Origin: a virus
Taxonomy: Duplodnaviria; Caudoviricetes
Strand: one strand, 5' to 3'
Virus record (IMG/VR): IMGVR_UViG_3300036790_000296
Location: 1-63,397 of that record
Length of the DNA stretch: 63,397 nucleotides
The translations under genes and the position numbers were made by a program. The notes beneath the pieces are model-generated. The model did no database searches, was not told the origin of the DNA, and worked only from the letters and a program-made list of their open reading frames with translations. Positions 10,636 through 62,685 of this stretch are shown here, in pieces (the stretch's first letter is position 1; each line of letters begins with the position of its first letter).

Positions 10636-12942
10636 ATGAGCGATATGGGTCTTGGCCAGAGTGGGGTGATGCAAGTTATTCCCCCAGCGCAACTGGAGGC
10701 GCAGCTATCTCAGGCCGCTACCGATAAAGCAACTGCGGCCCAAGCCCCCCAACAAGATGTACAACAGCTTTCATCTTATATCCGGGGCCAATTTGAAATT
10801 TTTCGGAACCATCGTAACACGCAGGCCGGATGGTCCGACAGACTTCTTATAGCGCTTCGCTCGTTCAACGGGCAGTATCCCGCCGATAAACTCCAAGAAA
10901 TACGTAAATTTGGCGGCAGTGAAGTATATGCACGCCTTAGTGCTCAAAAATGTCGCGCCGCCAGTTCTCTCCTGCGCGACATCTATCTAGGCCAGGACCG
11001 GCCTTGGGCTATTCGGGCTTCCACAAACCCGACTATTCCGCCCGAAATATTGAACAGCATCAAGCAGTTGATGCAGCAGGAAACGCAGCAAGTTACGCAA
11101 CATAAGGGTACGCCCCCGAACCCTAATGACGTACAAACACGGCAAACGGCGCTTATGGAGTCCGCGTCCGATGCCGCCAAAAAGAAAGCCGCCCAACAGG
11201 CACGCGACAGCGAAGATAAAATTGAAGATATGCTACGGGAAGGGGGGTTCTACCATGCAGTGGCTGAGTTTCTTGTTGATCTTCCTGTTTTCCCCTTCGC
11301 CATCATTAAGGGACCGGTTGTCAAAGTCATGCCGGAAGTCACGTGGCCACCGGGCGGCGGCCAGCCGGTAATTAAACAGGTGCCGAAACTTACTTGGTGC
11401 CGCGTATCGCCATTTGATTTGTGGTTTACTCCCGGCGTGGCGGATATTGAAAATGCCAATGTTATAGAAAAATTGCGCATTACGCGGGCTGAATTGAACG
11501 ATTTGCTTGATTTACCTGGATATGACCAGGATGAAATACGGGCTGTGCTTGACGAATTCGGCCGGGGCGGCTTGTACGACAATTGGGACACTACCGACGC
11601 CGAGCGCGCCGTCTTGGAGAGCCGGGAAAATCCGGCTTGGAACCGTTCGGCGATGATTTCGATGATGGAGTTTAACGGAAATGTCCAGGGCAGGGTGCTC
11701 CAGGACTATGGGTTAGCGGTTCCAGATGAACTTCGCGATTATAACGTCCAGGTTTGGTGCATTGGAAGCCACGTTATCAAAGCGCACCTTTCGCCGTCGC
11801 CCCGGCAGCGCCATCCATATTTCATTACGTCTTTCGAAAAGGTGCCAGGAACACCCGTTGGTAATGGGTTGACTGATCTGCTGGCTGATTTGCAAGAAGT
11901 TTCTAACGCCACTTTGCGTAGTCTTGTCAATAACTTAAGCATATCATCCGGCCCACAGGTGGTTGTGAACGATGATCGTCTATCCCCCGAGGAAACCGGA
12001 GAGGACTTGTACCCGTGGAAACGATGGCACGTACGGAACGACCCGGTATCGAACAATGCGCAAGAGCCTGTCAGTTTCTTCATGCCTACCTCCAATTCTC
12101 AGGCTCTAATTGCGGTCTTCCAGCAATTTGTTTCTATCGCGGACGACGTATCAGCGATCCCCAAATACGTTGGTGGGCAAGCTGGGGCCGGGGGTGCTGG
12201 GCGCACTGCCAGCGGGCTCGCTATGCTGATGGGCAACGCCTCGAAAATCTTGCAAACCGTCTCGGCAAATATCGACCGTGACGTATTCGAGCCAGCCCTT
12301 TTGCAGCTTGCAGACTTGATTATGCTTACGGACACGACCGGACTGCTTACTGGCGAGGAAAAAATAAGTGTGCAGGGCGTCGATGTGGCAATCCAGCGCG
12401 AGACTTTGCGCCAGCGCCAGATTGAGTTCTTGCAAGCCACTATGAACCCCACCGATCAGAAGATTATCGGGCTCAAGGGGCGTGCTGCTATGCTTCGTTC
12501 TGTGTCAACCACTATCGGTATGACCGGTGAGGAAATTGTGCCGCCCGAGGATCAGATTGACCAGATGGTGGCACAGGAAAAACAACAGCAGGCCAGCGGT
12601 GGCCCGGCTATACAGCAAAGAGTGGAAACAGGTGTACAAAAAGGCGTAGAAGCCGGTGTTCAGCGTATTGCTACGGAGTTGACAGCGGGCGTGCTTGCTG
12701 CTAGGGGTGGGATGCCTGAAGGACCGCCTGTGCACATTGGAACACCGGAAAGCGGCCAGCCAACTACGAATAACCCTGCTATGGACCTAGGACCACAAGG
12801 TGATCCCGCCCGCGCCGCGCGAATAGGCCAGGGTACTAAACAGGGTCCTCTTGTGGGGGGCGGTATGGCCCCTAATTCTGCAAACCTTGTAGGCCCAACC
12901 CCGGGGCCGGGTGCGCACCCTATCTCGCCGGGTGTCGGATAG
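10636..12942 (+). CDS. Portal protein (podovirus type)
   Basis: 768 aa; RVSPFDLWFTPG, PYFITSFEKVPG, RTASGLAML patterns; position next to the terminase. Confidence 0.88.
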   Translation: MSDMGLGQSGVMQVIPPAQLEAQLSQAATDKATAAQAPQQDVQQLSSYIRGQFEIFRNHRNTQAGWSDRLLIALRSFNGQYPADKLQEIRKFGGSEVYARLSAQKCRAASSLLRDIYLGQDRPWAIRASTNPTIPPEILNSIKQLMQQETQQVTQHKGTPPNPNDVQTRQTALMESASDAAKKKAAQQARDSEDKIEDMLREGGFYHAVAEFLVDLPVFPFAIIKGPVVKVMPEVTWPPGGGQPVIKQVPKLTWCRVSPFDLWFTPGVADIENANVIEKLRITRAELNDLLDLPGYDQDEIRAVLDEFGRGGLYDNWDTTDAERAVLESRENPAWNRSAMISMMEFNGNVQGRVLQDYGLAVPDELRDYNVQVWCIGSHVIKAHLSPSPRQRHPYFITSFEKVPGTPVGNGLTDLLADLQEVSNATLRSLVNNLSISSGPQVVVNDDRLSPEETGEDLYPWKRWHVRNDPVSNNAQEPVSFFMPTSNSQALIAVFQQFVSIADDVSAIPKYVGGQAGAGGAGRTASGLAMLMGNASKILQTVSANIDRDVFEPALLQLADLIMLTDTTGLLTGEEKISVQGVDVAIQRETLRQRQIEFLQATMNPTDQKIIGLKGRAAMLRSVSTTIGMTGEEIVPPEDQIDQMVAQEKQQQASGGPAIQQRVETGVQKGVEAGVQRIATELTAGVLAARGGMPEGPPVHIGTPESGQPTTNNPAMDLGPQGDPARAARIGQGTKQGPLVGGGMAPNSANLVGPTPGPGAHPISPGVG

Positions 12943-12945
12943 TTC

Positions 12946-13749
12946 ATGCTTGATTTTCACTTTATTTCCGGCCTGCCAAGGTCAGGGTCTACATTGCTTG
13001 CGTCTATTTTGCGCCAAAATCCTGCCTATACGGCGTCTATTCAAACTCCTATTGCGGCCATTATTGTGGCCTTACTGCCTGAATTGTCACGCACAAACGA
13101 GAGCGCGATATTTTTTACAGACGAACAACGTTTGCGGATATTAAGAGGCTTATTCTCTGCATATTACGCGGAGAATACGGTTGATGTAGTGTTCGATAAC
13201 AACCGCAAATGGTGCGCACATATTGCGCTGTTAGCAGATTTATTTCCGCAGTCCAAAGTTATATGCTGTGTCCGCCCCGCGTCTGGAATTGTGGATAGTA
13301 TAGAGCGGCTAGTCCGAAACAATCCGACAAGAATTAGCCCCATATATGGATCACAGTCCAATACTACGGTCTATAACCGGGTGCAAACCTATATGGCTCC
13401 TGATGGTGTGGTGGGGTATTCCTGGAATGCATTGCGTGATGCGTTTTACGGGGAGCACAAAGACCGCCTTGTTATTGTGCGCTACGATGATTTAGCAAGA
13501 TTTCCAGGAAAAGTCATTGAGACAGTTTCCAAAGAACTCGGATTGGCCCCGTTTCCGTATAAATTTAACGCCATAGAACCCATCCCTGGTACGGACGCTT
13601 TTGACGCCGCCCTTGACCTGCCTGGATTGCATGATTTGAAGCCTGAAGTGAAATACGAACCGCGCACTACCATACTGCCCCCTGATATTTTTAATAGCCT
13701 GCCGAAACCATTTTGGAACGTTAATAGAGCCGCAACTAATCCAAGGTAG
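12946..13749 (+). CDS. PAPS-dependent sulfotransferase
   Basis: 5'-PSB loop SGLPRSGSTLL; 3'-PB motif CVR..SGIVDS; RYDDL. Confidence 0.88.
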   Translation: MLDFHFISGLPRSGSTLLASILRQNPAYTASIQTPIAAIIVALLPELSRTNESAIFFTDEQRLRILRGLFSAYYAENTVDVVFDNNRKWCAHIALLADLFPQSKVICCVRPASGIVDSIERLVRNNPTRISPIYGSQSNTTVYNRVQTYMAPDGVVGYSWNALRDAFYGEHKDRLVIVRYDDLARFPGKVIETVSKELGLAPFPYKFNAIEPIPGTDAFDAALDLPGLHDLKPEVKYEPRTTILPPDIFNSLPKPFWNVNRAATNPR

Positions 13750-13752
13750 GGT
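13721..13752 (+). promoter_or_regulatory. CtrA-box-like promoter for the collagen genes
   Basis: TTAA-N7-GCAA-N11-TAGGGT. Confidence 0.55.
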
Positions 13753-13782
13753 CATTTGAACACTTTTTAAGGGCTAATCCTC

Positions 13783-14418
13783 ATGGCTGGCGCTACTGGC
13801 ATTTTGTCCGCACCGCAGGGCGATTACGACCGAAATATTGTTGGGTTTGTTCTTGAACAAGTTGTCGCCTCTGTAAACGCAGGTATTTTACTTGGTGGTA
13901 CTGGTCCTACCGGTGCAAATATTGGCGGGAATACTGGACCTACTGGGCCTACCGGTTCTACCGGTACTGGTCCTGCTGGTCCTGCTGGCCCCGCCGCGCC
14001 ACAAGGTCCTACTGGTCCCGTAGGCTCGAATACCGGCCCGCAAGGCGGACCTGGTTATCGAGGCGCAACCGGTCCCGCTGGTCTAACGGGAAATACAGGT
14101 ATTACTGGAAACCAAGGCCCGGCTGGTGCTGCTGGCGCGATTGGCCCGGCTGGTGGTGGCACTGGACAAACTGGTGCTACTGGTAGCGTTACAGGCCCGG
14201 CTGGTGCTGTAGGCGCAACTGGTCCTACCGGAGCTACGGGCGCAACTGGTCCTACCGGGCATACTGGATACGGCGGGTTGAAGGGACCTTCGGGCGCGAC
14301 TGGGCCTACCGGAAACTTTAATACATTGTTTATTGCGCCGCTCTCTAGCCCGGGTGTAACCGGACAGGTGTGGAACAAGAACGGCGTGCTCACGATTTCA
14401 GCGGGACCAAACACATGA
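13783..14418 (+). CDS. Collagen-like protein 1 (Gly-X-Thr rich)
   Basis: GPT/GAT triplets; C-terminal [17 protein letters not shown]. Confidence 0.9.
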
Positions 14419-15017
14419 CCGTTTCGCGCGATCAAGATGTGGACGCAAATCGGGTTGGGCCGATTTTGAAAGAACTTGTTGACGCTGTTAATGCTGGCGG
14501 CATTGGCGGCGCTACAGGTACGACTGGACCTACGGGTATTGGTGGCGGTAAGACCGGCCCTACTGGCCCTACTGGTACAATTACTGGTCCTACTGGGTAT
14601 ACAGGTGGCGCTGCTGGGCCTATTGGTCCTACAGGATTAACAGGCGCATCTGGCGCGGGTGGTGTTAATGGCCCGCAAGGTGCTCCTGGTTTGACTGGTC
14701 CTGTTGGGCCTACTGGTGGTATTGGCCCAACGCCCCCTGGTGGCGCTGCAAGCGGCGCGACCGGTCCTACTGGTCCTGTAGGCGGCACGACGGGGAAAAC
14801 CGGTTACGCTGGCGCAACTGGAGTTACGGGGCCAACCGGTATAGGAACAGTTGCTGGTTCTACGGGCGCAACCGGTTCTACGGGCGCAACCGGTGGTAAT
14901 GGTCCGACTGGAGTTAGCTTTACGGTTTTTGCACCGCCCACGGTTAGCCCCGGCGTAACTGGCCAAGTTTGGAGCAATGGCGGCATTTTGACAGTTTCAC
15001 ACGGACCGGGGACGTAA
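14415..15017 (+). CDS. Collagen-like protein 2
   Basis: ATGA overlap; GPT/GAT triplets; paralogous C-terminus [17 protein letters not shown]. Confidence 0.9.
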
Positions 15018-15027
15018 AGGCATCGCT

Positions 15028-15639
15028 ATGGCAATCGCTCCTTCTCCTAATGTTTCCCCGAGCACGTATGACGACAACCTTATTCCGTCGATCATCTCGC
15101 AGGTTGCGAATGTCATTAATCAGAATGCCGTAACGGGGCCGACTGGAAAAGCTGGCCCTGCCGGGTCTACTGGCGTGACTGGTTCTACTGGTCCTACTGG
15201 TGTGGGCGTTAGCGGCCCTTACGGCGGCCCCACTGGATTTACTGGGCCAACTGGCCCTGTAGGTTATATGGGCAATTCCGGTGCGACGGGTTACACTGGC
15301 CCGACTGGTATCACTGGAAACACAGGCGGCACTGGTCTTGTTGGTCCATCTACGTTTACGGGTCCTACTGGACCAACTAACGTTACGGGGTCTACGGGAC
15401 CAACAGGTACGCAAGGTTTGACTGGTCCGGCTGGTTCTGCTGGTCCCACTGGTCCCACTGGACAGCAAGGTGCAACCGGTTCTGCGGGCGCTCTTGGGGC
15501 AATTGGCCCTATTCGCAATAGCATTCTTCAGCTGCCTATAGTTGATCCTAAGCAGCCTGGTGCTTTGTGGTGGAATGTGCCGCTTGGTTTTACCGGCCCG
15601 GCAATTGCTGTTTCCCCGGGTACGCCGTACGGCGGATAA
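15028..15639 (+). CDS. Collagen-like protein 3
   Basis: GPT/GST triplets; shares the N-terminal D.N.(I/V)...V..(V/I)N motif; C-terminus [10 protein letters not shown]. Confidence 0.9.
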
Positions 15640-15643
15640 TCGC

Positions 15644-15673
15644 TTGACTTTATAATCGCGTTTGTGCTATCTA
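15644..15673 (+). promoter_or_regulatory. Sigma70-type promoter for the glycan enzyme operon
   Basis: TTGACT-18 nt-TATCTA with TG extension. Confidence 0.5.
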
Positions 15674-15697
15674 GCATAGACCGCTAGGAGCACCCCC

Positions 15698-17674
15698 ATG
15701 GCGCGCATTTGCCTAAATATGATAGTCCGCAATGAGAGCGCGAGAATTGTTCGTGCTATTCAAAGTGTTGCGCCATATATTTCGTGCTACGCCATTACGG
15801 ATACAGGTAGCACGGACAACACGGTTGAAATTATCCAAAAGTATTTTGCGGACTTGGAAATTCCCGGGGAAATATCTTCCTGTGAATTTGTGGACTGGTC
15901 CCAGGCACGTAATTTTGCACTGGCGAGAGCCCGCTTTTTGCCTATTCAATATGACTACATTCTGCTTATGGACGCAGACATGGAGTTGAAAGTCTTGAAT
16001 AAGGGGTTTAATAACGGTTTGATTGGGCGCTCCTATGATATGTTTCAACAGGGCGGCTCGTTAAAGTACATCAATCGCCGCCTCGTGCGCCGGGACCAGA
16101 CTGGCGTGTATATGGGCGTTACGCACGAGTATTTGGATGTGGTGGGGGATGCGTGTGTTCCAGCCGAGCATGCTTATTTTCTGGACCACGCAGATGGCGC
16201 AAACCGGCCGGAAAAATTCAAGCGGGATATTAGGCTTCTTGAGAAAGCGTTGATAGCGGAGCCTAATAACGGCAGGTATTTTTACTACCTCGCCCAATCA
16301 TACCGCGATGCAGGGAAACCTGCTAACGCTGCGAAATGGTATAAGAAGCGGGTTGACCTTGGCGGCTGGGACGAGGAAACGTGGAGCGCGCAGCAGAACT
16401 ACGCCCAATGCCTATTAGAGCTTAAAGACGAGGCGGGTTTTGTACTCAATATGCAATTAGCGTATAACATGCGCCCCTCCCGCGCTGAAACGTTATATGA
16501 TCTTGCCCATTTTTACCGAGAAAAGGGAATGAACGCGGCTTCGGTATTATTTTCGGAAGCTGGATTGCAGATACCCTATTCCCAGGACGCCTTGTTTGTG
16601 AGCGATTTTGTTTATACGTCTGGCCTTATGGAGGAATTTTCCATATGCGCTTTCTATTTGCCAGACAAGCGGGCACGTGGGTTTGACTTGACTAACAAAT
16701 TAGCACTTAAAAAAGGGCCGTATGGGCACCAGCGCGAAACCGCACGCAATAACCTGTACCACTATCTTCCGGTTTTAAAAGATATTGTGTCTACATTTGA
16801 ATGGCAGAAAATAGATTTTACGGCTCCAACAGGTTATACCGCTATGAACCCTTCTGTAGCGGCGCACCGCAATCGTTTGTATACGATTGTGCGAACGGTA
16901 AATTACAAGATTGTGGATGGGCGCTACGAAATTTTGGGGACGGATGGGACTGCAAATGACAGTAACCCTATTCGTACTCGTAATTTTCTTTTGGGTATTG
17001 ACGCCCATTTGAAAACTACAGATGCGCGTGAGTTGTTACCGCCCGGTAATATGCCTGAGCCGCTGTTTAAAGCTGTTCTTGGGTTTGAAGATATGCGGTT
17101 GTTTTCGTCTGGCTACGATTTAAATATATCAGCGTGCGTTCGCGAAATGAACGCGGATGGGTATTGCGAGCAGGTATACGCTCGTATTGACGGGCACTTT
17201 CTTACAAACGTAACCCGTATGCTGCGTACACCCCGGGAATATGAAAAGAACTGGATGCCGATTGTTAACGGTCCGGACGCGCGGTATATGTATCGTTTAG
17301 GCGAGGTAGTTGACCATACAGGCAAGACTGTTGAAAAGACGGAACCAGAACAAGATTGCCGACATATGAGTGGTGGTTCGCAGCTTATACCACACCAAGG
17401 CGGCTGGCTCTGCCTTGTGCACGAGGCACGGTTTATCCCCGGTACGCAGTTAAGGTATTACCAGCACCGGTTTGTGACGTTTGACTCATATTTTGCTGTG
17501 CGGCGTATCACCAAGCCGTTTGTTCTCCACGAAAAACAAATCGAGTTTGTGGCTGGCGCGGTGTGGCATCCGGTGTATCCAAAGCTAGTGATTTCATATG
17601 GCTATCAGGATAAAGAAGCGCGCCTTGCAACAATTGATATGGATCAACTAGAGAGGTTTTTATGGCAAAGCTAA
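15698..17674 (+). CDS. GT2 glycosyltransferase + TPR + beta-propeller-like C-terminal domain
   Basis: CLNMIVRNE, DTGSTDNT, DAD motif; TPR-like YYLAQSYRDAG; NPS/EDMRLF/EKNWMP blade motifs. Confidence 0.88.
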   Translation: MARICLNMIVRNESARIVRAIQSVAPYISCYAITDTGSTDNTVEIIQKYFADLEIPGEISSCEFVDWSQARNFALARARFLPIQYDYILLMDADMELKVLNKGFNNGLIGRSYDMFQQGGSLKYINRRLVRRDQTGVYMGVTHEYLDVVGDACVPAEHAYFLDHADGANRPEKFKRDIRLLEKALIAEPNNGRYFYYLAQSYRDAGKPANAAKWYKKRVDLGGWDEETWSAQQNYAQCLLELKDEAGFVLNMQLAYNMRPSRAETLYDLAHFYREKGMNAASVLFSEAGLQIPYSQDALFVSDFVYTSGLMEEFSICAFYLPDKRARGFDLTNKLALKKGPYGHQRETARNNLYHYLPVLKDIVSTFEWQKIDFTAPTGYTAMNPSVAAHRNRLYTIVRTVNYKIVDGRYEILGTDGTANDSNPIRTRNFLLGIDAHLKTTDARELLPPGNMPEPLFKAVLGFEDMRLFSSGYDLNISACVREMNADGYCEQVYARIDGHFLTNVTRMLRTPREYEKNWMPIVNGPDARYMYRLGEVVDHTGKTVEKTEPEQDCRHMSGGSQLIPHQGGWLCLVHEARFIPGTQLRYYQHRFVTFDSYFAVRRITKPFVLHEKQIEFVAGAVWHPVYPKLVISYGYQDKEARLATIDMDQLERFLWQS

Positions 17675-18312
17675 AGATAGTTACGGGATACGTGCCTATT
17701 GCTAACCATCCACGGTCGGCGCAAGAGTACGGTAGACTGGGAGAAAAGCTCCAAGAGCTTAAAGCCCCGGTGCAACCATTTTATGAGTTGTTGGGTACGT
17801 GTTGGTTGACTAGGTTAGTAGACCAGCTTCCGTTCGAGCCTACTTGGTCTAAGGGGGATAACCCACAAAAAAACACACTTGCGTATCAGTGTGCGACGCA
17901 TCAAAAGTTTGAATGGCTTTACCGATCTTCGCAGATGGACGATAAATCCGATGTGTTCATATGGGTGGATTACGGTTTGGCGCATATCCCAGGCTGGTCG
18001 GCAGCCGGTATGAACGAGTTTTTAAGCCGTGTGAAGAAAAACGATTTTGCTGTTCCCGGGTGCTGGGGCAAACAAGATGTACACGACAGTACACCTAATT
18101 GGCGCTTTTGCGGCGGCCTTATGGTTGTGCCGCGAAAGTACGTGCAAGATTTAAAGAACGGTATCCAAGCTATCACCATGATTAACGTGATGCAGACTAA
18201 ACATATAACGTGGGATGTGAACAGTATGGCGCACCTAGAAGCGCAAAACAAACTTCCCATTAGGTGGTATAAAGCGGACCACGATAAATCCATGTTCGAA
18301 AACTATAGGTAG
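17662..18312 (+). CDS. HtrL/YibB-like putative glycosyltransferase, paralog A
   Basis: FIWVDYG and WRFCGG motifs. Confidence 0.65.
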   Translation: MAKLKIVTGYVPIANHPRSAQEYGRLGEKLQELKAPVQPFYELLGTCWLTRLVDQLPFEPTWSKGDNPQKNTLAYQCATHQKFEWLYRSSQMDDKSDVFIWVDYGLAHIPGWSAAGMNEFLSRVKKNDFAVPGCWGKQDVHDSTPNWRFCGGLMVVPRKYVQDLKNGIQAITMINVMQTKHITWDVNSMAHLEAQNKLPIRWYKADHDKSMFENYR

Positions 18313-18316
18313 CCCA

Positions 18317-19336
18317 ATGAAAAAGACAGCGCTTATCACCGGTATTGGCGGCTCTATAGGCTGCCATGTTATGGTACACCTGCTCCACAATACAGATTGG
18401 GATATTGTGGGGATTGACAGCTTTCGCCACAAAGGTTTGATGGATCGGGTGCATGTGATGCTGGATGGCCACCCGGAATATTATGCACGCATGCGAATGC
18501 ATACGCACGATTTGCGCGCACCCTTGTCTCAAATCCTTATGGATCGCATTGGCAAGATTGACTATATACTTAATCTTGCAGCGCTTCCGGATGTTTTTGA
18601 TAGTATTGAAAATCCTGTGCCGTTTGTAATATCCAATACGCAAATGGTTTTGAATGTGCTGGAGTTTGCGCGGTACACAAGGCCGGACGCTTTCTTGCAC
18701 GTATCAACAGACGAGGTATACGGCCCAACGGACGGAAAAACATTCCATAAAGAATGGGACCCCATTCTGCCGTCTAACCCGTATTCGGCTTCCAAAGTGG
18801 CGCAAGAAGCAATTGCTATATCATACTGGCGTGCCTACAATTTGCCGCTTATAATTGTGAACCTTATGAATAATTTTGGCGAAATGCAGGCTCCTGACAA
18901 GTTTCCGTCTATTATTCAGCGGAAGCTGGCGCGTGGAGAAAAAATAACCATCCACGGTAGCCCCGATGCAATCGGGACGCGGTTCTATATTCACTCTCGT
19001 AATTCTGCCGATGCTTTTTTGTTTCTACTGAAAAACATAGAACCACACCTGCATATAGACGGTAGTATGGATAAGCCAGATAGGTATAATATTGTGGGCG
19101 ACAGGCAGGTGGGAAACGAAGAACTAGTGAATTTTATTGCGGGCGTTCTTGGGGTAAAGGCGCATTACGAATTTGAAGATTTCAAAGTTACACGTCCGGG
19201 TCATGATAGGCATTATGGGCTTGACGGGGCGAAATTATTTTCTCTTGGGTGGAAGTCTCCTGTGTCGTTTGAAGACTCTATGCGAAACACAGTGAATTGG
19301 GTTCGCGATCATCCTGAATGGTTGGAGCCAAAGTAA
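18317..19336 (+). CDS. rmlB: dTDP-glucose 4,6-dehydratase-like extended SDR
   Basis: GIGGSIG, STDEVYG, YSASK, RPGHDRHYGLD. Confidence 0.85.
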   Translation: MKKTALITGIGGSIGCHVMVHLLHNTDWDIVGIDSFRHKGLMDRVHVMLDGHPEYYARMRMHTHDLRAPLSQILMDRIGKIDYILNLAALPDVFDSIENPVPFVISNTQMVLNVLEFARYTRPDAFLHVSTDEVYGPTDGKTFHKEWDPILPSNPYSASKVAQEAIAISYWRAYNLPLIIVNLMNNFGEMQAPDKFPSIIQRKLARGEKITIHGSPDAIGTRFYIHSRNSADAFLFLLKNIEPHLHIDGSMDKPDRYNIVGDRQVGNEELVNFIAGVLGVKAHYEFEDFKVTRPGHDRHYGLDGAKLFSLGWKSPVSFEDSMRNTVNWVRDHPEWLEPK

Positions 19337-20430
19337 TGCGCATAGCAGTAGTAGGTGCGGGGTTTGCTGGGGCTACGATTGCGGAGAGACTTGGCCGACT
19401 CCATTCGGTATATGTGTTTGAAGCGCGCCACCATGTAGGGGGTAATGCATATACCGAGCGCGACTATAGAACTGGTGTTATGAAGCATGTGTATGGGCCA
19501 CATATATTTCATACGGCGGACGAAGATGTGCGGGCTTACGTAGGGCGATTTGATTTTTTTAAGCCGTTTGAATTGCGTATGAAGTCCATACACGATGGGC
19601 ACGTGTACTCATTTCCTATAAACCTCCATACAATTAACCAGTTTTGGAAGGACTGTATGACGCCTGTTGCTGCTGCGGATGTACTTAAGCGGCACGGTTA
19701 CCGCGCTTGTCCTGGTGAGCCGTACAATTTTAAAGACGCGGCTTGTAAAAAAGTGGGGGAAGAATTGTATGAAGCATTTTTGGAGGGGTACACCAGGAAG
19801 CAATGGGGGGTAGAACCCGATCAATTGCCTGCTTCTTTGGCGGATCGTCTTCCGGTTCGGTTTGATTACGAGGACAATAAGTATCCACCTACTGAATTTC
19901 AGGGTATTCCAATTGAGGGGTATACGCGCGTAATAGAGAGAATGTTGCAGGATATTCCAGTGCACTTAGGTACAAAATTCATAAGGGACCATGCTACAGA
20001 GTATGACCACGTATTTTATAGCGGCCCGCTTGATGCGTGGTTTGGCTATCAGTATGGGCGGCTTCGTTACCGTACGGTAAAATTCATTGACGAAGTTACT
20101 GACGGCGATGCCCAAGGATGCGCTGTTATTGCTTGCCCTGATATGGAGCAACCGTGGACACGTATGACGGAGCATAAGCACCTTGCTCCATGGGAGGCAC
20201 ACGATAAAACAATCCTTTCGTTTGAGTACAGTTCTGATTGCCATGAAGGCGATGAACCTATGTACCCTATGCGCCTTGAAAAAGACAAGCTTATGCTAGA
20301 CCAGTATAAAGAGCTTGCTGCTGGCGAAAAAAGGGTTACGTTTATAGGCCGTCTTGGTACTTATCGGTATATTGATATGGACCAGACGATTGCCGAGTCT
20401 TTAAAAGTTGCTGCGGAGTTCTTGCGATGA
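19336..20430 (+). CDS. glf: UDP-galactopyranose mutase
   Basis: GAGFAG, HVGGNAY, YGPHIFHT, YTRKQWG, GRLGTYRYIDMD. Confidence 0.95.
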   Translation: MRIAVVGAGFAGATIAERLGRLHSVYVFEARHHVGGNAYTERDYRTGVMKHVYGPHIFHTADEDVRAYVGRFDFFKPFELRMKSIHDGHVYSFPINLHTINQFWKDCMTPVAAADVLKRHGYRACPGEPYNFKDAACKKVGEELYEAFLEGYTRKQWGVEPDQLPASLADRLPVRFDYEDNKYPPTEFQGIPIEGYTRVIERMLQDIPVHLGTKFIRDHATEYDHVFYSGPLDAWFGYQYGRLRYRTVKFIDEVTDGDAQGCAVIACPDMEQPWTRMTEHKHLAPWEAHDKTILSFEYSSDCHEGDEPMYPMRLEKDKLMLDQYKELAAGEKRVTFIGRLGTYRYIDMDQTIAESLKVAAEFLR

Positions 20431-21053
20431 AAACGCTTGTCGCTACTATAACATGTTGGCGGGATGAAGATAATGGCCGTAATGACGGTATAAGGGATAC
20501 GTGGCTTAGGTGGGGTTATCTTATAGATCACGTATTTTTCCTCGGATATGAAGAACGACATGTCCCTCAAGGAGCTATTATGTTCAGTGGAGGCTCTAGT
20601 AGAATTTCCGATGACTATGATGCTATCCCATTCAAGGTACATAGAATTTGCCAATATGCGGCTTTTTACGGGTACGATGATTTATTTATTAGCGATGTAG
20701 ACACATACGTAGCGGTGCCCCTTCTTCTAAATTCTCGTGTGGGGGATTATGCAGGATGGCGCTGTGACGAAGGCCACGCTGCGGGCGGTAATGGATATTG
20801 GTTAAGCCGAAAGGCCATGTTAGCACTTAGCAATTCCGCCCCTTACCCAGGATACCAAGATATATGGGTTGGCGAAGCCCTTAAGGAGGCTGGTATTCCC
20901 CTCGTGCATGATCCTCGCTTTATAGGTGGCGTTCCAGAGAAATATGTACCCGGCACCATTTCCGCCCATCTCGGCCGCGCTACTGGGACATTTGACCCGC
21001 AATGGATGCGAGACTACCACAAGACGTGTCTGGAGGTTTTGCCATGCGGGTAA
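20427..21053 (+). CDS. GT31/Fringe-like glycosyltransferase
   Basis: DDY..IPFK, DVDTYV (DxD), GGNGYWLSR, QDIWVG. Confidence 0.75.
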   Translation: MKTLVATITCWRDEDNGRNDGIRDTWLRWGYLIDHVFFLGYEERHVPQGAIMFSGGSSRISDDYDAIPFKVHRICQYAAFYGYDDLFISDVDTYVAVPLLLNSRVGDYAGWRCDEGHAAGGNGYWLSRKAMLALSNSAPYPGYQDIWVGEALKEAGIPLVHDPRFIGGVPEKYVPGTISAHLGRATGTFDPQWMRDYHKTCLEVLPCG

Positions 21054-21727
21054 AAGTTGTTTCGGGGTATATACCACTTCCCCTTCTTAACATAACGGAA
21101 GAACGGTTTCGCGCTTTAGGGGATGAACTAGCGTGCGCATTGCCATGTCCGTATCGTTTTTTTGAAGACGACACTATACAGGATTGTTGGGTCCACAGGT
21201 TTTTGAACTTCTTGCCATTTAGCGTTAGCCCTTCAGACCCAAACCCGGCTAAAGACAGGTTTGCTACCTCTAATATTATGTTGATGTCAAATATTGTTAT
21301 GCACCAGAAGTATGAGTGGCTTGTCCACACTGCCATAGAAGACCAAGCCCCAGATGTTTTTGTGTGGATTGACTATGGTGTAATGAAACAGCCCAATATG
21401 AAACCAGAGGTTATTACTGATTTTATTAAGAAATTGGAAGAAAAAGATAGTTGCCCTTGCGTATACGCCCCCGGAATTCGAGGTATTGAACCAATAGATG
21501 ACACTCAATCTTGGGATCGTTTCTGTGGTTCTGTTGTGATTGTACCCCGCAATCATTTGGTTAATCTGTGTAGCGCTATGAAAATGCACCAAATGCAGCA
21601 TATTATGGAGCACCATACTGTAACTATTGAGTCTAACACGCTTGCGCATATTGAGCAAAAAAAATTCTTTCCAATTTGCTGGTATAAGGCGTGGTGGGGC
21701 GCGGAAATGTTCATGAATTTACCTTAA
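21044..21727 (+). CDS. HtrL/YibB-like putative glycosyltransferase, paralog B
   Basis: Aligns by eye with 17662..18312 (HQK(F/Y)EWL, W(V/I)DYG, RFCG, WYKA). Confidence 0.65.
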   Translation: MRVKVVSGYIPLPLLNITEERFRALGDELACALPCPYRFFEDDTIQDCWVHRFLNFLPFSVSPSDPNPAKDRFATSNIMLMSNIVMHQKYEWLVHTAIEDQAPDVFVWIDYGVMKQPNMKPEVITDFIKKLEEKDSCPCVYAPGIRGIEPIDDTQSWDRFCGSVVIVPRNHLVNLCSAMKMHQMQHIMEHHTVTIESNTLAHIEQKKFFPICWYKAWWGAEMFMNLP

Positions 21728-21789
21728 TCTATTAGTTACTCTTGAAGCCGATTATCCTCGCAGGTTTTAATCCATGCGGGGAGTTACCT

Positions 21790-22047
21790 ATGGCCGACAA
21801 GAGCAAGAGTTTTAAGGGCGGCGACGCTGGCGCGGAAGCTACTGAGAAATCGCATAACGTAGAGTTCGCCAAAGGCGGCGATACTCATATGTTTGGCGAG
21901 CAGGCGGCTGGCCCGCAGAAGCCCGGTTACACCGAAAAACAGCCTACATCTGCTCCTGGTGAGAAGTTCGCCGAAGGCGGCAAGGGTAAGATGTTTGGGT
22001 TTTCAGGTGCCCTCCCCGCCCGCGATGGTATTACAAGCGCTCGATAA
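21790..22047 (+). CDS. Small virion-associated protein with FAxGG repeats
   Basis: GGGGAG SD; FAKGG..MFG and FAEGG..MFG. Confidence 0.7.
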   Translation: MADKSKSFKGGDAGAEATEKSHNVEFAKGGDTHMFGEQAAGPQKPGYTEKQPTSAPGEKFAEGGKGKMFGFSGALPARDGITSAR

Positions 22048-22735: not shown

Positions 22736-22766
22736 ATAGTTGCCGTGCGCGCCCCAGGAGGTTGCT

Positions 22767-23765
22767 ATGCCGATTACAGAGACAGTTGTTAACCAAACCC
22801 CATTGCCCCTTGCTCCCGTCGATGATAGTGTGCATATCCCGGAGTCGGTGAAGCGAGCAGCGGCACTTGCTGAAAGTTTTTACCCTAAAGCAGCAGAAGT
22901 TGCCCCCCCTGCCGCGCCCGTTACAGCCGAAGCGCCCGCCCCACCTGTAACGCCGCCCCAGTCTCCCCCCACTGAAGGTCAATGGGAACATCGCTATCTT
23001 TCGATGAAAGGGCGGTATGAGTCGTCCCAGCAGACGAATGGGGTGTTGCAGGAGCAGCTTCAAGAACTAGGAAATGAGTTAATTCGCACCCAACAGCTAC
23101 TTTCGCCTAATACACAAAGCAATTCCCCCCAGCCAACAGCCCCCCTCTTGACAGACGAGGACCGGTCAAATTACGGCCCGGACCTTCTAGATGTAGTGCA
23201 AAGGGCTGCTTTGGAGGCTGTTGCCCCCAAAATCAGCGCGCTGGAAGCTGAAAATGCCAAGTTACGCCAGTCTACTGTTAAGACCGATAGGCAACGAATT
23301 TATCAGTTTTTAGCGCAATCTTTGCCTAACTGGGAGGCCATAAACACCAGCCCACGGTTTTTGCAATGGCTGGCTTTACGAGATGTTTACTCTGGTGGTA
23401 TACGAAGTCAAATGTTGAAAACGGCATTCCAAGCGGCAGATGCCCCTCGGGTTCTTGCTTTCTTCAACGGCTTCCTAGCGGAGGAAGCAGCCACGGGTAA
23501 CGATAGCACAGGCTCGCAGCCACAGCCGCAGGAAACTGCGCCTCGTCAAGCAGCGGTCGCTCTGGAAACGCTAGCGGCTCCTGGTAGGGCAAGACCGGCA
23601 ACTGGAGACTCCCAGGTGCCCGTTGACAAGCCGACTTTCACACGCAAACAAATAGCTGACTTTTATATTGATGTGCGCAGGGGCGTTTATGCCGGGCGCG
23701 ATCAAGATAAGGCCAGAGACGAGCAACGAATTTTCGCCGCACAACGCGACGGACGAGTTAGATAA
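22767..23765 (+). CDS. Capsid scaffolding protein
   Basis: AGGAGG SD; coiled coils, W...N...F..WL, C-terminal AQRDGRV; directly upstream of the capsid gene. Confidence 0.8.
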   Translation: MPITETVVNQTPLPLAPVDDSVHIPESVKRAAALAESFYPKAAEVAPPAAPVTAEAPAPPVTPPQSPPTEGQWEHRYLSMKGRYESSQQTNGVLQEQLQELGNELIRTQQLLSPNTQSNSPQPTAPLLTDEDRSNYGPDLLDVVQRAALEAVAPKISALEAENAKLRQSTVKTDRQRIYQFLAQSLPNWEAINTSPRFLQWLALRDVYSGGIRSQMLKTAFQAADAPRVLAFFNGFLAEEAATGNDSTGSQPQPQETAPRQAAVALETLAAPGRARPATGDSQVPVDKPTFTRKQIADFYIDVRRGVYAGRDQDKARDEQRIFAAQRDGRVR

Positions 23766-23797: not shown

Positions 23798-24808
23798 ATG
23801 CCTATTCCGACTTCAGGTTTTCCCGGCGCAACTGCTGGTTCCACGCCTGCAATTTATCCGGTTGGTAGTTCGGGTAACAGCCTGCAAGCTACTGGCTTTA
23901 TTCCGGAAATTTGGTCCGGGAAGCTGGTTGAAAAGTTTTACGCCAGCACGGTCCTTGCTGCTATCAGCAACACGGATTACGAGGGCGAAATCAAAAACAA
24001 GGGTGACCGGGTGAAAATCCGCACTAAGCCCACTATTACCATCCATAACTATGACTCGGACGGTTTGCTTGGCCTTGATCGGCCGACTGGCGGCACCGTT
24101 GAGTTGTATATCGGGAACGGCAAGTATTTCTCGCTGATCCTTGACGACGTTATGGAAATTCAGTCGGACCTGAATATTCTTTCGATGTGGTCCGACGACG
24201 CCGCGCAGCAGCTTAAGATTACGGTTGACCAGGACGTGCTTACGGGTCTGGTTGGCTCAATGGCTGCGCAGAACCAGGGCACCGCTGCGGGTGTTATCAC
24301 CGGTTCGCTTAATCTAGGCGTTCAGGGTACACCGCTCACTGTTGTGGGTCGTAACCCGGGTGCGGGCCAAGTTGAGCTTTTGGACGTGCTAATGCGCATG
24401 GGCCAAGTGCTGGACGAGCAGAATATCCCGGAAGTTGGCCGGTGGGTCGTCATGCCCGCGTGGGCCGGGCGTCAGATTAAGCAGTCTGAGCTTCGGCAAG
24501 CCTATTTGTCGGGCGACAGTGTGTCTATGTTGCGTAATGGGCGTCTTGGGATGATAGACCGGTTTACGATCTATATTTCCAACTTGCTTCCGAATAACAG
24601 TTCGGATAGCGCCCAATTCAATTCTGGCGAATGGCCGATCTTTGCGGGCCATGCGCATGGTCTGACTTTTGCGAGCCAGATTAGCAAGGTTGAGACGCTT
24701 CGTTCCGAGCTTACCTTCGGCCAAATCCTTCGTGGTCTTCAGGTTTACGGATACCAGGTGGTTGACGGCAAGGCGCTTGTGCAGGCTCAAGTCACGCCTG
24801 GCTCCTAA
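23798..24808 (+). CDS. Major capsid protein
   Basis: FIPEIWSGKL...NTDYEGEI...GDRVKI and RGLQVYG; 336 aa; followed by a terminator. Confidence 0.92.
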   Translation: MPIPTSGFPGATAGSTPAIYPVGSSGNSLQATGFIPEIWSGKLVEKFYASTVLAAISNTDYEGEIKNKGDRVKIRTKPTITIHNYDSDGLLGLDRPTGGTVELYIGNGKYFSLILDDVMEIQSDLNILSMWSDDAAQQLKITVDQDVLTGLVGSMAAQNQGTAAGVITGSLNLGVQGTPLTVVGRNPGAGQVELLDVLMRMGQVLDEQNIPEVGRWVVMPAWAGRQIKQSELRQAYLSGDSVSMLRNGRLGMIDRFTIYISNLLPNNSSDSAQFNSGEWPIFAGHAHGLTFASQISKVETLRSELTFGQILRGLQVYGYQVVDGKALVQAQVTPGS

Positions 24809-26372: not shown

Positions 26373-27326
26373 ATGGCTGTTGAAGTTCAAGGCCCCGCAT
26401 TAGTAATGGCACAACCGGTTGTTGTGTCAAATGGATTTACAGGCCCTACTGGTCCAAGCGGCGGCCCTACTGGTCCAACCGGGATTGTTGGCAGCGTAGG
26501 CGTAACCGGTCCTCTAGGTCTTACTGGTCCAACGGGGTCAATTGGTACTATTGGACGAACTGGGCCTACTGGAATAACCGGCGCAATTGGGCCTCCAGGA
26601 AATTCAATCACTGGCCCTACGGGCCAACAAGGTGCAACTGGTTCGCTTACTGGACCTACTGGAGTTACCGGGCCTGATGGAGCCGCTGCCAATACAGGGT
26701 CAACAGGGCCAGCGGGTCCACTTGGAACGGGTCCTACGGGTCCGGCTGGTGTTGCTTCTAGCACCGGGGCAACTGGGTCTACCGGCTATACAGGCCCTAC
26801 TGGTCCTACGGGAATAACCGGCCCTACGGGTGCACAGGGGCAATCTACAAATACTGGCGCAACCGGCCCCCAAGGTATTGCCGGGGTTGCCGCGAATACT
26901 GGCGCAACTGGATATACTGGACCTACTGGCACTGTTGGCACAACTGGACCTACTGGCACAGCGGGTAGCACAGGTGTAACAGGAGCAACAGGGTTTCTGT
27001 CTGTAAACGCGGGTGTTTCTACTAAATCGGGTAATTACACACTTGTTCTTTCTGATGCTAACACGATAATAAATATGGCGGCCCCAGCACCTGGGGGGAG
27101 TAGTACGCTAACTATTCCGGCTAATGTCACAGTTCCTTTTACGCCAGGAACGTATATACTGTTGCAGTGCACCAATAACGGTAGTGGTGGAACTGTGGTA
27201 TTGGTTGAGACTGCGGGCGTTTCTTTGTATGGTTGGAGAAACTCGTCCAATATGGCAGCCGGTGCTGGGCAAATAGGTGGCCTTCTATTGTTGTATGTTG
27301 GGTCTAATATATGGTTCGCATCATAA
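26373..27326 (+). CDS. Collagen-like tail fibre 1
   Basis: About 190 aa of GXT; C-terminal head YTLVLSDAN...LTIP.N..VPF..GT. Confidence 0.85.
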
Positions 27327-27497: not shown

Positions 27498-28865
27498 ATG
27501 CTGCTGGGGAGGGTTTTACAAAACGTTGGCGACAGTATTCAGCATACTGTTGACTACAGCGAATGGTTGGAGAAAGGGGAGGTTCTTCAGTCAGTTTCGT
27601 ATACTGTAGACTATGGCACCGCAACTGTTTCTAACGGTATATACTCACTCGATTTGAAAAAAGCCAAGTTTCTTTTGAATGGTGGAACGCTAGATGACCA
27701 GTTTAACATTATTGTTACTGCTATTACGTCATTTGGGCAAACACGCATCGACACTATTGGGGTAGCAGTTGAAACGAATGGTGGCCCTGTATTTCAATCT
27801 TCTAATCAGTCTCTCATGCTTTCTATTATGGGAGCTACTGGCGTTACTGGCAGCACTGGCGCAACTGGCCCATTTGGATCAGGGTCTACAGGTTCTACGG
27901 GGGTAACTGGCCCTGTCGGCATAACTGGGCCTACTGGAATAACCGGTCCTACTGGCGTAACTGGTGCTCAAGGTATTCAGGGTGTAACCGGTCCTACTGG
28001 CGTAACTGGTGCCCAAGGGACGGCAGGGAGTGCCACAAATACAGGTGCAACTGGCCCTACCGGTTCTACTGGTGTGGCGGGGATTGCATCTAATACCGGT
28101 GCAACCGGTCCAACTGGTGTTGCAGGTGCAGGTGGCGCGATTGGCGCAACCGGTCCTACTGGTGCAGCAGGTGGCGGCGGTGCGATTGGCGCAACCGGTC
28201 CTACTGGTGTTGCAGGTGCAGGTGGCGCGATTGGCGCAACCGGTCCTACTGGTGTTGCAGGTGTAGGTGGCGCGATTGGCGCAACCGGCCCTACAGGTGC
28301 TGTGGGTAGCGGCGGCGCGGTAGGTGCAACCGGGGCAACCGGACATACGGGGGCTACTGGCGCAACCGGAGCTACCGGTGCAGCAGGTGCTGCTAGTACG
28401 GTAACTGGACCAACAGGTAGCGGCGGCGCTGGCGGTGCCACTGGCCCAACTGGATCGTCTGCTTCTATAACTGGGGGGACTGGAGCAACAGCTACGGGTA
28501 ACTCACTTAGCGTTCAATCGCCCGCGCTTCTTAGGTATATATCCAGTACCCTTTTGGTTGGGTACACGTTTACACCATATAACGGGGGGACAGTTTCCTC
28601 TGGAACATACACGCCCGCCGCCGCAAACGGCAATTATCAATATTACACAAATAATGGCGCGCACACTTTGGCCAATCCTACGGCTGATTGCGCTATAGAT
28701 ATTTTGGTTACAAACGGGGCGAGCGCCGGAACTATCACCTTTTCTACTTTTACAGTTGGGTCTAATACGGGCGATACGCTTACGACAACAAACACGAATG
28801 TCTTTATTATTTCTATTCGTAGAATAAATGGCGTTTCCACGTATGTTGTAAAAGCGCTCCAATGA
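27498..28865 (+). CDS. Collagen-like tail fibre 2 with N-terminal adaptor domain
   Basis: N-domain (VDYSEWL) paralogous to 30576..30860; long GXT tract; C-terminal head. Confidence 0.85.
28098..28322 (+). repeat. 45-bp tandem repeat x5 inside fibre 2
   Basis: GATGPTG(V/A)(A/V)G.GGA(I/V) units. Confidence 0.85.
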
Positions 28866-60655: not shown

Positions 60656-60656
60656 T

Positions 60657-60896
60657 TCATTTTGCTCCTTCATATCGCTGGTAGCGTTTTATAGTCTTAA
60701 GCCAGTCCGCAACCCATGCATCAAAACTTATTATGTCTTGGCATGTTGACGAGCGAGAATGCGCTACTATACTACACGCCGCTAAACCCATTCGTAATTT
60801 GTAGGCACGTGCCATCCTGATGCACAACTTGCGGCGTGTCGCCACATGAGGGCGGTTATAGCCTCGCCGCGTCGCGCGTACTTTTGATTTACTCAC
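60657..60896 (-). CDS. Small basic hypothetical protein
   Basis: Co-oriented; GAGG SD. Confidence 0.5.
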   Translation of the reverse strand: MSKSKVRATRRGYNRPHVATRRKLCIRMARAYKLRMGLAACSIVAHSRSSTCQDIISFDAWVADWLKTIKRYQRYEGAK

Positions 60897-61403: not shown

Positions 61404-61546
61404 TTTACACTCCTTTAAGGGGGCATTACCTAACCTTGGGTCATTCATACGCCATACAATCAGCGCGTTAAGTACACTATCATAACCAAGGGTAGGGTAT
61501 AGCCCGCCCTTGATTGCCATTTTCATAGTTTGCATATCTATCATGC

Positions 61547-62677: not shown

Positions 62678-62685
62678 AATGGATT

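Follow-up and report, generated by a model that had tools for sequence, protein, structure and literature searches.

A collagen and glycosyltransferase cassette among the head genes of an uncultured podophage belongs to a lineage-wide module

Why would a tailed phage carry collagen-like proteins, glycosyltransferases, nucleotide sugar enzymes, and a sulfotransferase in the midst of its head genes? The question is raised by IMG/VR virus record IMGVR_UViG_3300036790_000296, which was analyzed at its full length of 63,397 bases (here called the window) and carries a completeness rating of 100%. Ten contiguous plus-strand genes occupy positions 12946 to 21727 of the window, between the portal gene and the scaffold and capsid genes, and all ten were found where an initial annotation of the sequence had placed them. 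That annotation had proposed that the genes form a system by which the phage glycosylates, and possibly sulfates, its own collagens. We find that the cassette is real and that its enzyme family is tied to Gly-x-Thr proteins more often than chance would allow but that the cassette is not unique, being one version of a module that recurs across its phage lineage. We consider it reasonably probable that the cassette serves to O-glycosylate the collagen-like proteins of the phage itself, late in infection and wholly in the cytoplasm.

RESULTS

A ten-gene cassette between the portal and scaffold genes

The cassette contains the following genes, in which GT denotes glycosyltransferase, TPR denotes tetratricopeptide repeat, and pLDDT is the predicted local distance difference test score of a structural model.

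12946..13749, plus strand: soluble sulfotransferase, an accessory part of the module (PF13469, 1.7e-14; PF00685, 8e-8)
13783..14418, plus strand: colA, collagen-like protein, type 1, 211 aa (PF01391, 1.7e-10; 33 G-x-y triplets, Thr at Y in 16)
14415..15017, plus strand: colB, collagen-like protein, type 1, about 200 aa (37 G-x-y triplets, Thr at Y in 20)
15028..15639, plus strand: colC, collagen-like protein, type 2, 203 aa (PF01391, 2.1e-14; 36 triplets, Thr at Y in 20)
15698..17674, plus strand: core enzyme, with a GT2 domain (about aa 1-165), a TPR region (about aa 170-345), and a five-bladed GH130/GT108-like propeller (aa 345-658) (PF00535, 7.8e-8)
17662..18312, plus strand: GT-A fold glycosyltransferase-like protein 1, 216 aa, partner of the core enzyme (model pLDDT, 94.9)
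18317..19336, plus strand: nucleoside diphosphate (NDP)-hexose 4,6-dehydratase-like short-chain dehydrogenase/reductase (SDR), RmlB-like (PF16363, 5e-39; TIGR01181, 6.4e-51)
19318..20430, plus strand: UDP-galactopyranose mutase, Glf (PF03275, 2e-63; TIGR00031, 1.3e-81)
20427..21053, plus strand: GT31/Fringe-like GT-A glycosyltransferase, 208 aa (Atlas model; D-V-D motif in the sequence)
21041..21727, plus strand: GT-A fold glycosyltransferase-like protein 2, a paralog of protein 1 (BLASTP, 30% identity, E = 3e-37)

Intergenic spacing ranges from -52 to +58 nt, and the sulfotransferase gene starts 3 nt past the portal stop codon. Promoter-like and terminator-like sites did not exceed shuffled controls (17 versus 19.8 and 22 versus 20.4, respectively), and thus we treat the ten genes as part of a head gene string and claim no transcript ends. 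Two start codons were revised by inspection of the sequence. The colB gene more likely starts at ATG 14415, which overlaps the colA stop codon, than at GTG 14370, the start of the longest open reading frame (ORF). For GT-A protein 2, the longest ORF (241 aa) starts at 21002, the alignment to its paralog starts at an internal Met, and ATG 21041 is the more likely start. Consistent with the initial annotation, a hydropathy scan in 19-residue windows detected no membrane segment or signal peptide in the ten proteins, the sole exception being an amphipathic N-terminal helix in colA. The G+C content is 0.47 to 0.48 across 16 to 22 kb versus approximately 0.51 elsewhere in the window, which is compatible with acquired genes.

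The small collagens and the core enzyme

Repeat content and common terminal motifs bear out the description of colA, colB, and colC as three paralogous Gly-X-Thr collagens. Both colA and colC exceed the PF01391 cut-off, colB, a paralog of colA, falls under it at 21.6 bits, and uninterrupted G-x-y runs reach up to 14 triplets. The N- and C-terminal motifs are common to all three proteins and to 165 distinct relatives, with an N-terminal motif of YDRN... in type 1 (colA and colB) and YDDN...IP in type 2 (colC). The type 2 motif is kept in the second collagen gene of relatives, which usually have one gene per type. Tyr residues are present within the repeats of each small collagen, in surroundings without acidic context.

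The core enzyme had been described as a GT2-TPR-propeller protein, and all three domains were detected in its 658 residues. The GT2 domain matched PF00535 at 32.9 bits (cut-off, 23.3), and D92 and D94 of its MDAD (DxD) motif were invariant in 27 relatives. TPR families matched at residues ~178 to 243, each under its Pfam cut-off, and a family profile of the GT2-TPR half matched TPR proteins strongly (8e-11 for the TPRs of OGT). When compared to all PDB sequences, the same profile matched SunS (2.1e-11), GmaR (5e-11), and the ThuS-like entry 7msk (4e-6), and the next GT2 enzyme was chondroitin synthase at 0.0019. The single core-enzyme sequence returned SunS (8.9e-7) and GmaR (4e-4) in the same order, and the SunS profile alignment spanned the GT2 domain and entered the TPR region. 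The NCBIfam SunS model TIGR04195 matched at 3.8e-8 and 32.6 bits, under its equivalog cut-off of 350 bits, and thus the core enzyme is a SunS relative and not an equivalog. SunS S-glycosylates a Cys of a bacteriocin, GmaR O-GlcNAcylates flagellin, and enzymes of the SunS/GmaR/ThuS type are cytoplasmic and glycosylate a peptide or flagellin. We conclude from these comparisons of sequence that the core enzyme is nearer to protein and peptide glycosyltransferases than to other solved GT2 enzymes.

Structural modeling specified the propeller of the core enzyme as GH130/GT108-like. The C-terminal 314 residues were modeled with five blades (pLDDT, 93.7; predicted template modeling score, 0.92), and the top Foldseek matches were all GH130 or GT108 enzymes (5b0p, 1.1e-10; 9erg, 8.9e-10; 6q50, 9.3e-9). 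Over an E value range of 1e-10 to 1e-6 and template modeling (TM) scores of 0.56 to 0.62, the matches comprised GH130 beta-mannoside phosphorylases/synthases and Leishmania GT108 mannosyltransferase/phosphorylases. Within the propeller, E120-D121-x-R123, R138, H231, R242, Y244, H246, and R247 were invariant in 27 relatives. A predicted complex pairing the GT2-TPR half with colA residues 1 to 80 scored 0.01 and was uninformative either way. Cultured phages gave only partial matches to the core enzyme, one of which, in Tunturiibacter phage Tunturi_5, was a GT2-TPR half adjoining tail fiber genes where no collagens are annotated.

GX[T/S]-repeat genes lie upstream of the core enzyme in phages and in bacteria

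The initial annotation had suggested synteny in related phages as a check, and the linkage of collagens to enzymes was borne out. Scanning IMG/VR for portal homologs yielded 567 relatives, the best 80 of which were examined. Among the 31 loci in which both portal and scaffold genes were present (loci not de-duplicated), a core-enzyme homolog lay between the two in all 31, BLAST-detectable collagen ORFs lay 5' of the core enzyme in 28, and a GT-A homolog lay directly 3' of it in 28. A single-protein scan for core-enzyme loci yielded 5 loci only; with the further scans added, 105 distinct full-length copies were available. The best 80 matches of the alignment-based scans all belonged to the same lineage, which is the lineage that the phage co-occurrence counts cover. 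In 79 of 93 distinct loci, the GT-A homolog adjoins the core enzyme.

Collagen genes were counted on either side of the core enzyme. A first census with a threshold of 15 triplets found one to three upstream collagen genes in 64 of 99 distinct loci and none in 35. When the 2.5 kb upstream of the core enzyme was recounted, the same number of distinct loci (n = 99) comprised 64 with a long collagen, 21 with a short GX[T/S] protein, and 14 with neither, whereas the 2.5 kb downstream contained 0 long and 3 short proteins, with none in 77 (n = 80). Thus, GX[T/S] ORFs were found upstream in 85/99 loci versus 3/80 downstream controls. In the "collagen-less" clade, the slot is filled by two or three proteins of 65 to 90 aa, in each of which a small, conserved globular domain is joined to a short GTT/GST/GPT tail; examples of short-tailed slot proteins are L031:11820-12316, L033:12326-12765, L140:5457-5972, and L213:4378-4986. 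The tailed proteins may be minimal acceptors. Collagen-like fibers were encoded elsewhere in the genome in 5/5 complete collagen-less relatives examined.

The same arrangement was found in bacteria. The GT2-TPR half had 3261 relatives of 189 to 602 aa, many of them ~360 to 390 aa long and encoded by soil bacteria, among them Mesorhizobium and Bradyrhizobium. When bacteria were scanned with a profile at one genome per species (genome_contigs), 317 loci were obtained, the best 80 of which were examined, and all three domains of the enzyme were encoded in 54 of those 80. Collagen ORFs that were Thr/Ser rich and had 20 or more triplets were present within 4 kb upstream in 22/47 bacterial loci with that length of flank and within 4 kb downstream in 0/58, and no portal or capsid homologs of the phage lineage were found near the bacterial loci. 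One locus from a metagenome-assembled genome (L304:1202-6144) contains a G-x-S collagen, a sulfotransferase 42% identical to that of the window, a second Ser-rich collagen, and the start of a GT2-TPR enzyme, and some other bacterial loci also contain a GT-A homolog. Moreover, several bacterial collagens carry Tat-like (twin-arginine, RRxFLG) signals (L316:773-1162, L324:5317-5952, L303:62-1054, and L317:4626-5315), and in two, the C terminus is a hydrophobic stretch and then RRLR, resembling a PEP-CTERM sorting signal. The predicted Tat-like signals would fit modification in the cytoplasm followed by export.

The upstream/downstream asymmetry in both phages and bacteria would be hard to account for if no functional tie existed. 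We conclude that the core of the module consists, in order, of GX[T/S]-repeat proteins, the GT2-TPR-propeller enzyme, and the GT-A enzyme and that the tailoring genes vary.

The window carries an unusual set of tailoring genes

The variable ORFs of relatives are mostly S-adenosylmethionine (SAM) methyltransferases and also include SDRs, a radical-SAM/SPASM enzyme, DUF4422 proteins, and sulfotransferases. A methyltransferase-like ORF was present in 28/31 modules, and none was found in the window. Among 51 well-flanked distinct loci, a sulfotransferase was found in 6, an SDR in 4, a GT31-like gene (usually 3' of the SDR in relatives) in 3, and glf in 1. The sole other glf contig among the relatives fetched (L172/L099) has the gene set of the window in a different order, and its Glf is 32% identical. 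The portal-to-scaffold gap of the window, at 9.8 kb, is the largest, versus 4.7 to 9.0 kb in the 31 relatives. We conclude that the module usually takes a "methyl" form and that the cassette is an unusual "sulfate, deoxyhexose, galactofuranose (Galf)" variant of it.

Other cargo was also found in the portal-scaffold gap of relatives. Endonuclease VII (Endo VII)-type homing nucleases lie within the module at L007:11537-12019, L017:4136-4558, L026:11926-12435, and L062:6684-7124, and such insertions may aid gene turnover of the module. In the collagen-less clade, the gap contains proteins of ~510 aa with an amidase_3 or CHAP domain and a peptidoglycan-binding domain (L031:15123-16673 and L033:15411-16931). 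Directly 3' of the portal gene and before the collagens, some relatives encode a TIG domain protein or a 662-aa laminin-G/concanavalin-like protein (L021:12310-13344 and L058:6915-8903), which may act as additional binding proteins of the head or neck.

Transferases and sugar-making enzymes of the window

Domain searches agreed with the initial annotation for the GT2 domain (PF00535) and the sulfotransferase (PF13469) and were silent for the remaining transferases, as nothing in Pfam matched either GT-A paralog or the 208-aa protein at E ≤ 10. For the 208-aa protein, which had been called GT31-like, the candidate name comes from structure and not from HMMER: the Atlas model had TM scores of 0.80 to 0.90 to clusters with PF01762 (Galactosyl_T) or PF02434 (Fringe), two rows of which reached the naming bar. 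The two GT-A paralogs had been called HtrL/YibB-like, and that name gained no support from HMM searches. A search of the window with PF09612 (HtrL_YibB) gave no match, control genomes were equally silent, and the name remains as a language-model lead from an Atlas cluster (score, 0.97) in which 39% of the members carry PF09612.

Structure placed the GT-A paralogs among glycosyltransferases. The model of protein 1, built with 26 relatives in the alignment, has a GT-A fold, and VIA-align matched it to PBCV-1 A64R, a transferase that glycosylates the capsid (2p6w; Z, 12.6; root mean square deviation, 3.8; 167 residues aligned), the xyloglucan xylosyltransferase XXT1 (Z, 11.4), and the bacterial GT6 enzyme BoGT6a (Z, 10.0). 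Foldseek likewise returned GT6 enzymes and A64R with E values of 2e-5 to 2e-4, and among predicted viral structures, the model matched Pithovirus proteins best (TM, ~0.8). D97 is nearly invariant in the family, and D103, Y104, and G105 are invariant. The GT-A family profile gave only chance-level matches to PDB sequences (A64R, 0.2), no Pfam domains were found in the 120 best GT-A homologs, and tblastn with a GT-A paralog found no match in cultured phages.

Glf was confirmed, and the SDR is a putative RmlB-like dehydratase. The SDR scored 173 bits against TIGR01181, under the 365-bit equivalog cut-off, and its best PDB matches were all dTDP-glucose 4,6-dehydratases (1.9e-40). Its sequence contains STDEVYG and YSASK, which we take to be the TDE and YxxxK catalytic motifs. 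Glf scored 214 bits against PF03275, 60 bits against the N-terminal FAD-binding family PF13450, and 274.5 against TIGR00031 (cut-off, 303.75).

The sulfotransferase exceeded the cut-offs of both of its families (PF13469, 55.1 bits versus 27; PF00685, 32.4 versus 22). It contains PRSGST at residues 11 to 16 and an R...S stretch near residue 109, presumably the 5'-phosphosulfate-binding (5'-PSB) and 3'-phosphate-binding (3'-PB) motifs for 3'-phosphoadenosine-5'-phosphosulfate (PAPS). Matches in PDB were weak (E values of 0.005 to 0.03), were to protein-tyrosine sulfotransferases, and covered residues 5 to 118, the PAPS-binding half. Among cultured phages, tblastn found only distant cyanophage and marine virus copies of 23 to 28% identity.

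No flippase or rmlA/C/D genes were found elsewhere in the window, in agreement with the initial annotation, and neither were PAPS synthesis genes, further sugar genes, a glycan polymerase, or a polyprenyl-phosphate transferase. Because the window holds no other pathway genes, the phage must use the nucleotide sugars and PAPS of its host, as had been proposed.

Phage genome, module boundaries, and tail fibers

The source of the window is an uncultured soil-type tailed phage, a podophage with a complete 63.4-kb genome. The genes that bound the module, and two further collagen-like genes, are as follows.

10636..12942, plus strand: portal gene, upstream boundary of the module (PF23899 SU10_portal, 3.9e-9; phrog_332, 3.3e-62)
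21742..22047, plus strand: 101-aa head-module ORF, the end of the variable region in relatives (tblastn, found in most relatives at 37 to 76% identity)
22740..23765, plus strand: scaffold-like gene, downstream boundary (phrog_13678, 7.9e-38)
23798..24808, plus strand: major capsid gene, downstream boundary (phrog_267, 1.7e-49; PF25209, 1.7e-8)
26373..27326, plus strand: collagen-like tail fiber 1 (PF01391, 2e-20; 55 triplets, Thr at Y in 30)
27498..28865, plus strand: collagen-like tail fiber 2 (PF01391, 4e-17; 66 triplets, Thr at Y in 36)

The cassette is separated from the scaffold gene by the conserved 101-aa ORF and three small ORFs, and in relatives, tblastn placed homologs of the 101-aa ORF immediately 5' of the scaffold gene. 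The N-terminal domain of tail fiber 2 is that of the gp77 fiber-tail adaptor of podophage GP4 (PF23148, 6.4e-8), which places this fiber on the tail. Because the tail fiber collagens are equally Thr rich, the Gly-x-Thr habit is not a peculiarity of the small collagens.

One arm of the genome encodes the large terminase, portal, scaffold-like protein, major capsid protein, an SU10-type adaptor, the two collagen-like tail fibers, a lysozyme, and large internal virion proteins. The other is devoted to replication and encodes a primase/helicase, an SNF2 helicase, and a family A polymerase. Neither tRNA genes nor an integrase was found in the window. Megablast of the head region against the cultured phage collection gave no DNA-level match, and the cultured phages most closely related to it infect Rhizobium (RHph_TM3_14A, TM27A/B, and TM29), with capsid proteins 66% identical (the value for RHph_TM3_14A) and portal proteins 57% identical. 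In the Rhizobium phages, the portal gene is followed by three small ORFs and then the scaffold gene, and the whole module is missing.

Two features outside the head region are recorded here. A 1732-aa ORF at window positions 40487 to 45685, where AT skew is strong (up to 0.25), matched nothing in Pfam or PHROGs; it probably encodes a giant protein of the internal or ejection type. On the minus strand at 59402 to 62755, a DUF2201 metallopeptidase-like/VWA-like protein adjoins an ATPase (phrog_1297), and the PHROGs label of "HNH endonuclease" for the DUF2201 protein is unsupported by its Pfam domains.

DISCUSSION

A model for late glycosylation of collagen-like proteins

We propose the following pathway. 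From the position of the genes, the collagens and enzymes would be made together in the cytoplasm late in infection. Family and linkage suggest that the GT2 domain, guided by the TPRs, would place the first sugar on Thr of the Gly-x-Thr repeats, with the three small collagens and possibly the two collagen-like tail fibers as acceptors. Going by its fold, the propeller would attach the second residue, probably a beta-mannosyl one, with GDP-Man or Man-1-P as donor. Further growth of the chain, with Galf and a deoxyhexose as the presence of Glf and the dehydratase suggests, would then fall to the two GT-A paralogs and the GT31-like enzyme; the phage Glf would supply UDP-Galf, and a nucleotide sugar derived from a 4-keto-6-deoxyhexose would be begun by the phage dehydratase and completed by host enzymes. 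The sulfotransferase would transfer sulfate from host PAPS to the glycan or directly to protein, and the modified fibers would be assembled into the virion. The variable genes of relatives, being methyltransferases, SDRs, radical-SAM enzymes, and DUF4422 proteins, are of glycan-tailoring types and count in favor of this pathway.

Several observations weigh against parts of the pathway. The propeller fell below the cut-off of the GH130 family PF04041 (E, 0.016; 14.6 versus 26 bits) and matched in the last blade only, its family profile matched no PDB sequence at E ≤ 1, and, as modeled, the domain might instead act as a phosphorylase or hydrolase or serve in binding. A lone 4,6-dehydratase yields only the keto intermediate. 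The donors of the transferases are putative, and the predicted glycan composition (Galf and a 6-deoxyhexose) is deduced from single pathway genes that are rare in relatives. That the small collagens reside in virions and bear sugars is likewise a prediction from genes, and capsid "spikes" may be one of several options for their position. Because 14/99 loci lack an upstream GX[T/S] ORF and fibers are encoded elsewhere, the small collagens need not be the sole or main acceptors, and the two collagen-like tail fibers are equally possible acceptors. The absence of the module from the nearest cultured relatives means that it is dispensable, and the weak kinship of the sulfotransferase to protein-tyrosine sulfotransferases means that sulfate may sit on protein rather than on a glycan.

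Alternative explanations

The last of these points leads to an alternative in which the sulfotransferase acts on Tyr, Thr, or Ser hydroxyls of the collagen polypeptide independently of any glycan, such that the fibers would be doubly modified. Its best solved relatives are consistent with this activity, as are the Tyr residues inside the repeats of each small collagen and the location of the gene upstream of the collagens, separate from the sugar genes; moreover, sulfation of bacterial collagen-like and tail-collar proteins has been predicted before (Iyer et al. 2010; available part of PMC2938197). The matches are nonetheless weak and limited to the PAPS-binding half, the Tyr residues lack acidic context, and no hydroxylase is encoded in the window, so that we regard direct sulfation of the polypeptide as possible, though on the unlikely side. 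We give less credence still to the idea that the enzymes glycosylate other virion proteins, such as the major capsid protein, the tail fibers, or tail proteins, in the manner of mycobacteriophages, and that the small collagens, as unrelated structural or accessory fibers, were merely co-inserted at a hot spot. The loci with an enzyme and no upstream GX[T/S] ORF would be explained in this way, as would the collagen-like tail fibers of the collagen-less relatives and the unrelated Endo VII, TIG, laminin-G, and amidase/CHAP cargo of the same gap. The asymmetry of GX[T/S] ORFs in both phages and bacteria argues against co-insertion, however, and so does the replacement of collagens by small GTT/GST-tailed proteins in the collagen-less clade, and we consider it unlikely.

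Enzymes of the Glf, RmlB-like, and GT31-like kinds belong to the usual repertoire of O-antigen loci. The cassette might remodel a glycan of the host envelope, such as lipopolysaccharide, exopolysaccharide, or capsule, for example, to block superinfection or to aid progeny release, with the collagens uninvolved. Clusters of phage glycosyltransferases are usually interpreted in this way (available part of PMC7029224), but the cassette encodes no membrane segment, flippase, polymerase, or polyprenyl-phosphate transferase, its genes lie within the head gene string, and the nearest solved relatives of the core enzyme act on proteins or peptides. Lysogenic conversion is unlikely because no integrase was found, and envelope remodeling as a whole seems to us decidedly improbable. 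Finally, sugar hypermodification of phage DNA as protection from restriction is a role often assigned to phage glycosyltransferases (available part of PMC10202952). We find it scarcely credible here, as no hydroxymethyl-pyrimidine or other base modification genes were found in the window, and neither the head-module position nor the TPR-propeller architecture nor the link to GX[T/S] proteins fits DNA modification. O-glycosylation of the phage's own collagen-like proteins thus remains the explanation that we favor.

Implications

A broader proposal, which we hold tentatively and at somewhat less than an even chance, is that the podophages of this very large uncultured lineage (>500 IMG/VR contigs) make a dedicated glycan coat that evolves fast. 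Small collagens of two conserved types would act chiefly as glycan carriers of the virion, a bifunctional GT2-TPR-GH130-like enzyme found in phages and bacteria alike would glycosylate them in the cytoplasm, and tailoring genes would be swapped, giving methylation in most relatives and sulfation, Galf, and deoxyhexose in the phage of the window. The bacterial enzyme would serve Tat-exported collagen-like surface proteins. If so, sulfated or methylated collagen O-glycans would be a general determinant of interactions between phage and host or phage and environment.

A single late gene string joins acceptors, an initiator from a protein-glycosylating family, extenders, donor synthesis, and a sulfotransferase, with hundreds of natural tailoring variants. 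If the proposal is correct, phage particles would bear variable and even sulfated glycans, which would bear on adsorption, adherence to soil or mucus, immune recognition, and the "auxiliary metabolic genes" of viromes. Moreover, a widespread bacterial enzyme family (the 317 loci and 3261 GT2-TPR proteins described above) would be a likely modifier of bacterial collagen-like surface proteins. The initial annotation knew of no described phage system of this kind, and none was found in the full-text literature, from whose coverage many subscription journals are absent; in the same coverage, no paper was found on collagen-like proteins of phages being glycosylated or sulfated by phage enzymes. Measured glycosylation of phage virions was found only for mycobacteriophages in the available parts of the literature searched, and by that literature, the chemistry of collagen glycosylation and sulfation has not yet been measured for any phage.

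Comparison with known systems

Reportedly, tail-tube subunits are also acceptors in mycobacteriophage virion glycosylation. In Che8 and related mycobacteriophages, phage glycosyltransferases glycosylate the phages' own virion proteins (Freeman et al. 2023, cited in PMC11256854, available part). That system differs from the one proposed here in that the acceptors are capsid subunits rather than dedicated collagen fibers and in that the phage lineages and hosts are unrelated; donor synthesis genes and a sulfotransferase are not reported for it in the available parts of the literature covered.

Clusters of giant viruses, such as the Mimivirus fibril clusters, join nucleotide sugar synthesis, several glycosyltransferases, a methyltransferase, and a fibril protein (available part of PMC9614988). 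The likeness extends to structure, as the GT-A paralogs of the phage have PBCV-1 A64R as their best structural match and Pithovirus proteins next. In contrast, the giant viruses are viruses of eukaryotes with far larger genomes, and Mimivirus L230 hydroxylates and glucosylates Lys, not Thr, of a collagen-like protein. Sulfation is not reported for these systems in the available parts of the literature covered. The predicted bacterial sulfation operons of Iyer et al. 2010 are built around 2-oxoglutarate-Fe dioxygenases and often include a PAPS synthetase, whereas the phage cassette has glycosyltransferase partners and neither a hydroxylase nor a PAPS gene.

At the level of the core enzyme, the propeller shares with GH130 and GT108 enzymes a five-bladed fold, has an E-D-x-R motif that is invariant among its own relatives, and differs from those enzymes in being fused behind a GT2-TPR half. 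SunS, ThuS, and GmaR are the best solved sequence relatives of that half, and none of the three has a propeller domain. SgtA of Clostridioides difficile consists of a GT-A domain and four TPRs, is encoded beside bclA3, the gene of a collagen-like glycoprotein of the exosporium, and in vitro modifies Thr residues of collagen-repeat peptides with beta-O-GlcNAc (available part of PMC7157674). The phage system resembles it in pairing a soluble GT-A and TPR enzyme with an adjacent Gly-x-Thr collagen gene, SgtA being compared by its published domain plan, and those relatives of the phage enzyme that are stand-alone GT2-TPR proteins (~360 to 390 aa) are similar in size to SgtA (358 aa). It differs in that the phage enzyme has an added GH130/GT108-like propeller, the phage acceptors are ~200 aa long and lack a C1q-like head, and the cassette adds four enzymes and a sulfotransferase. 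C. difficile SgtA-BclA3 is the closest functional precedent for the phage cassette.

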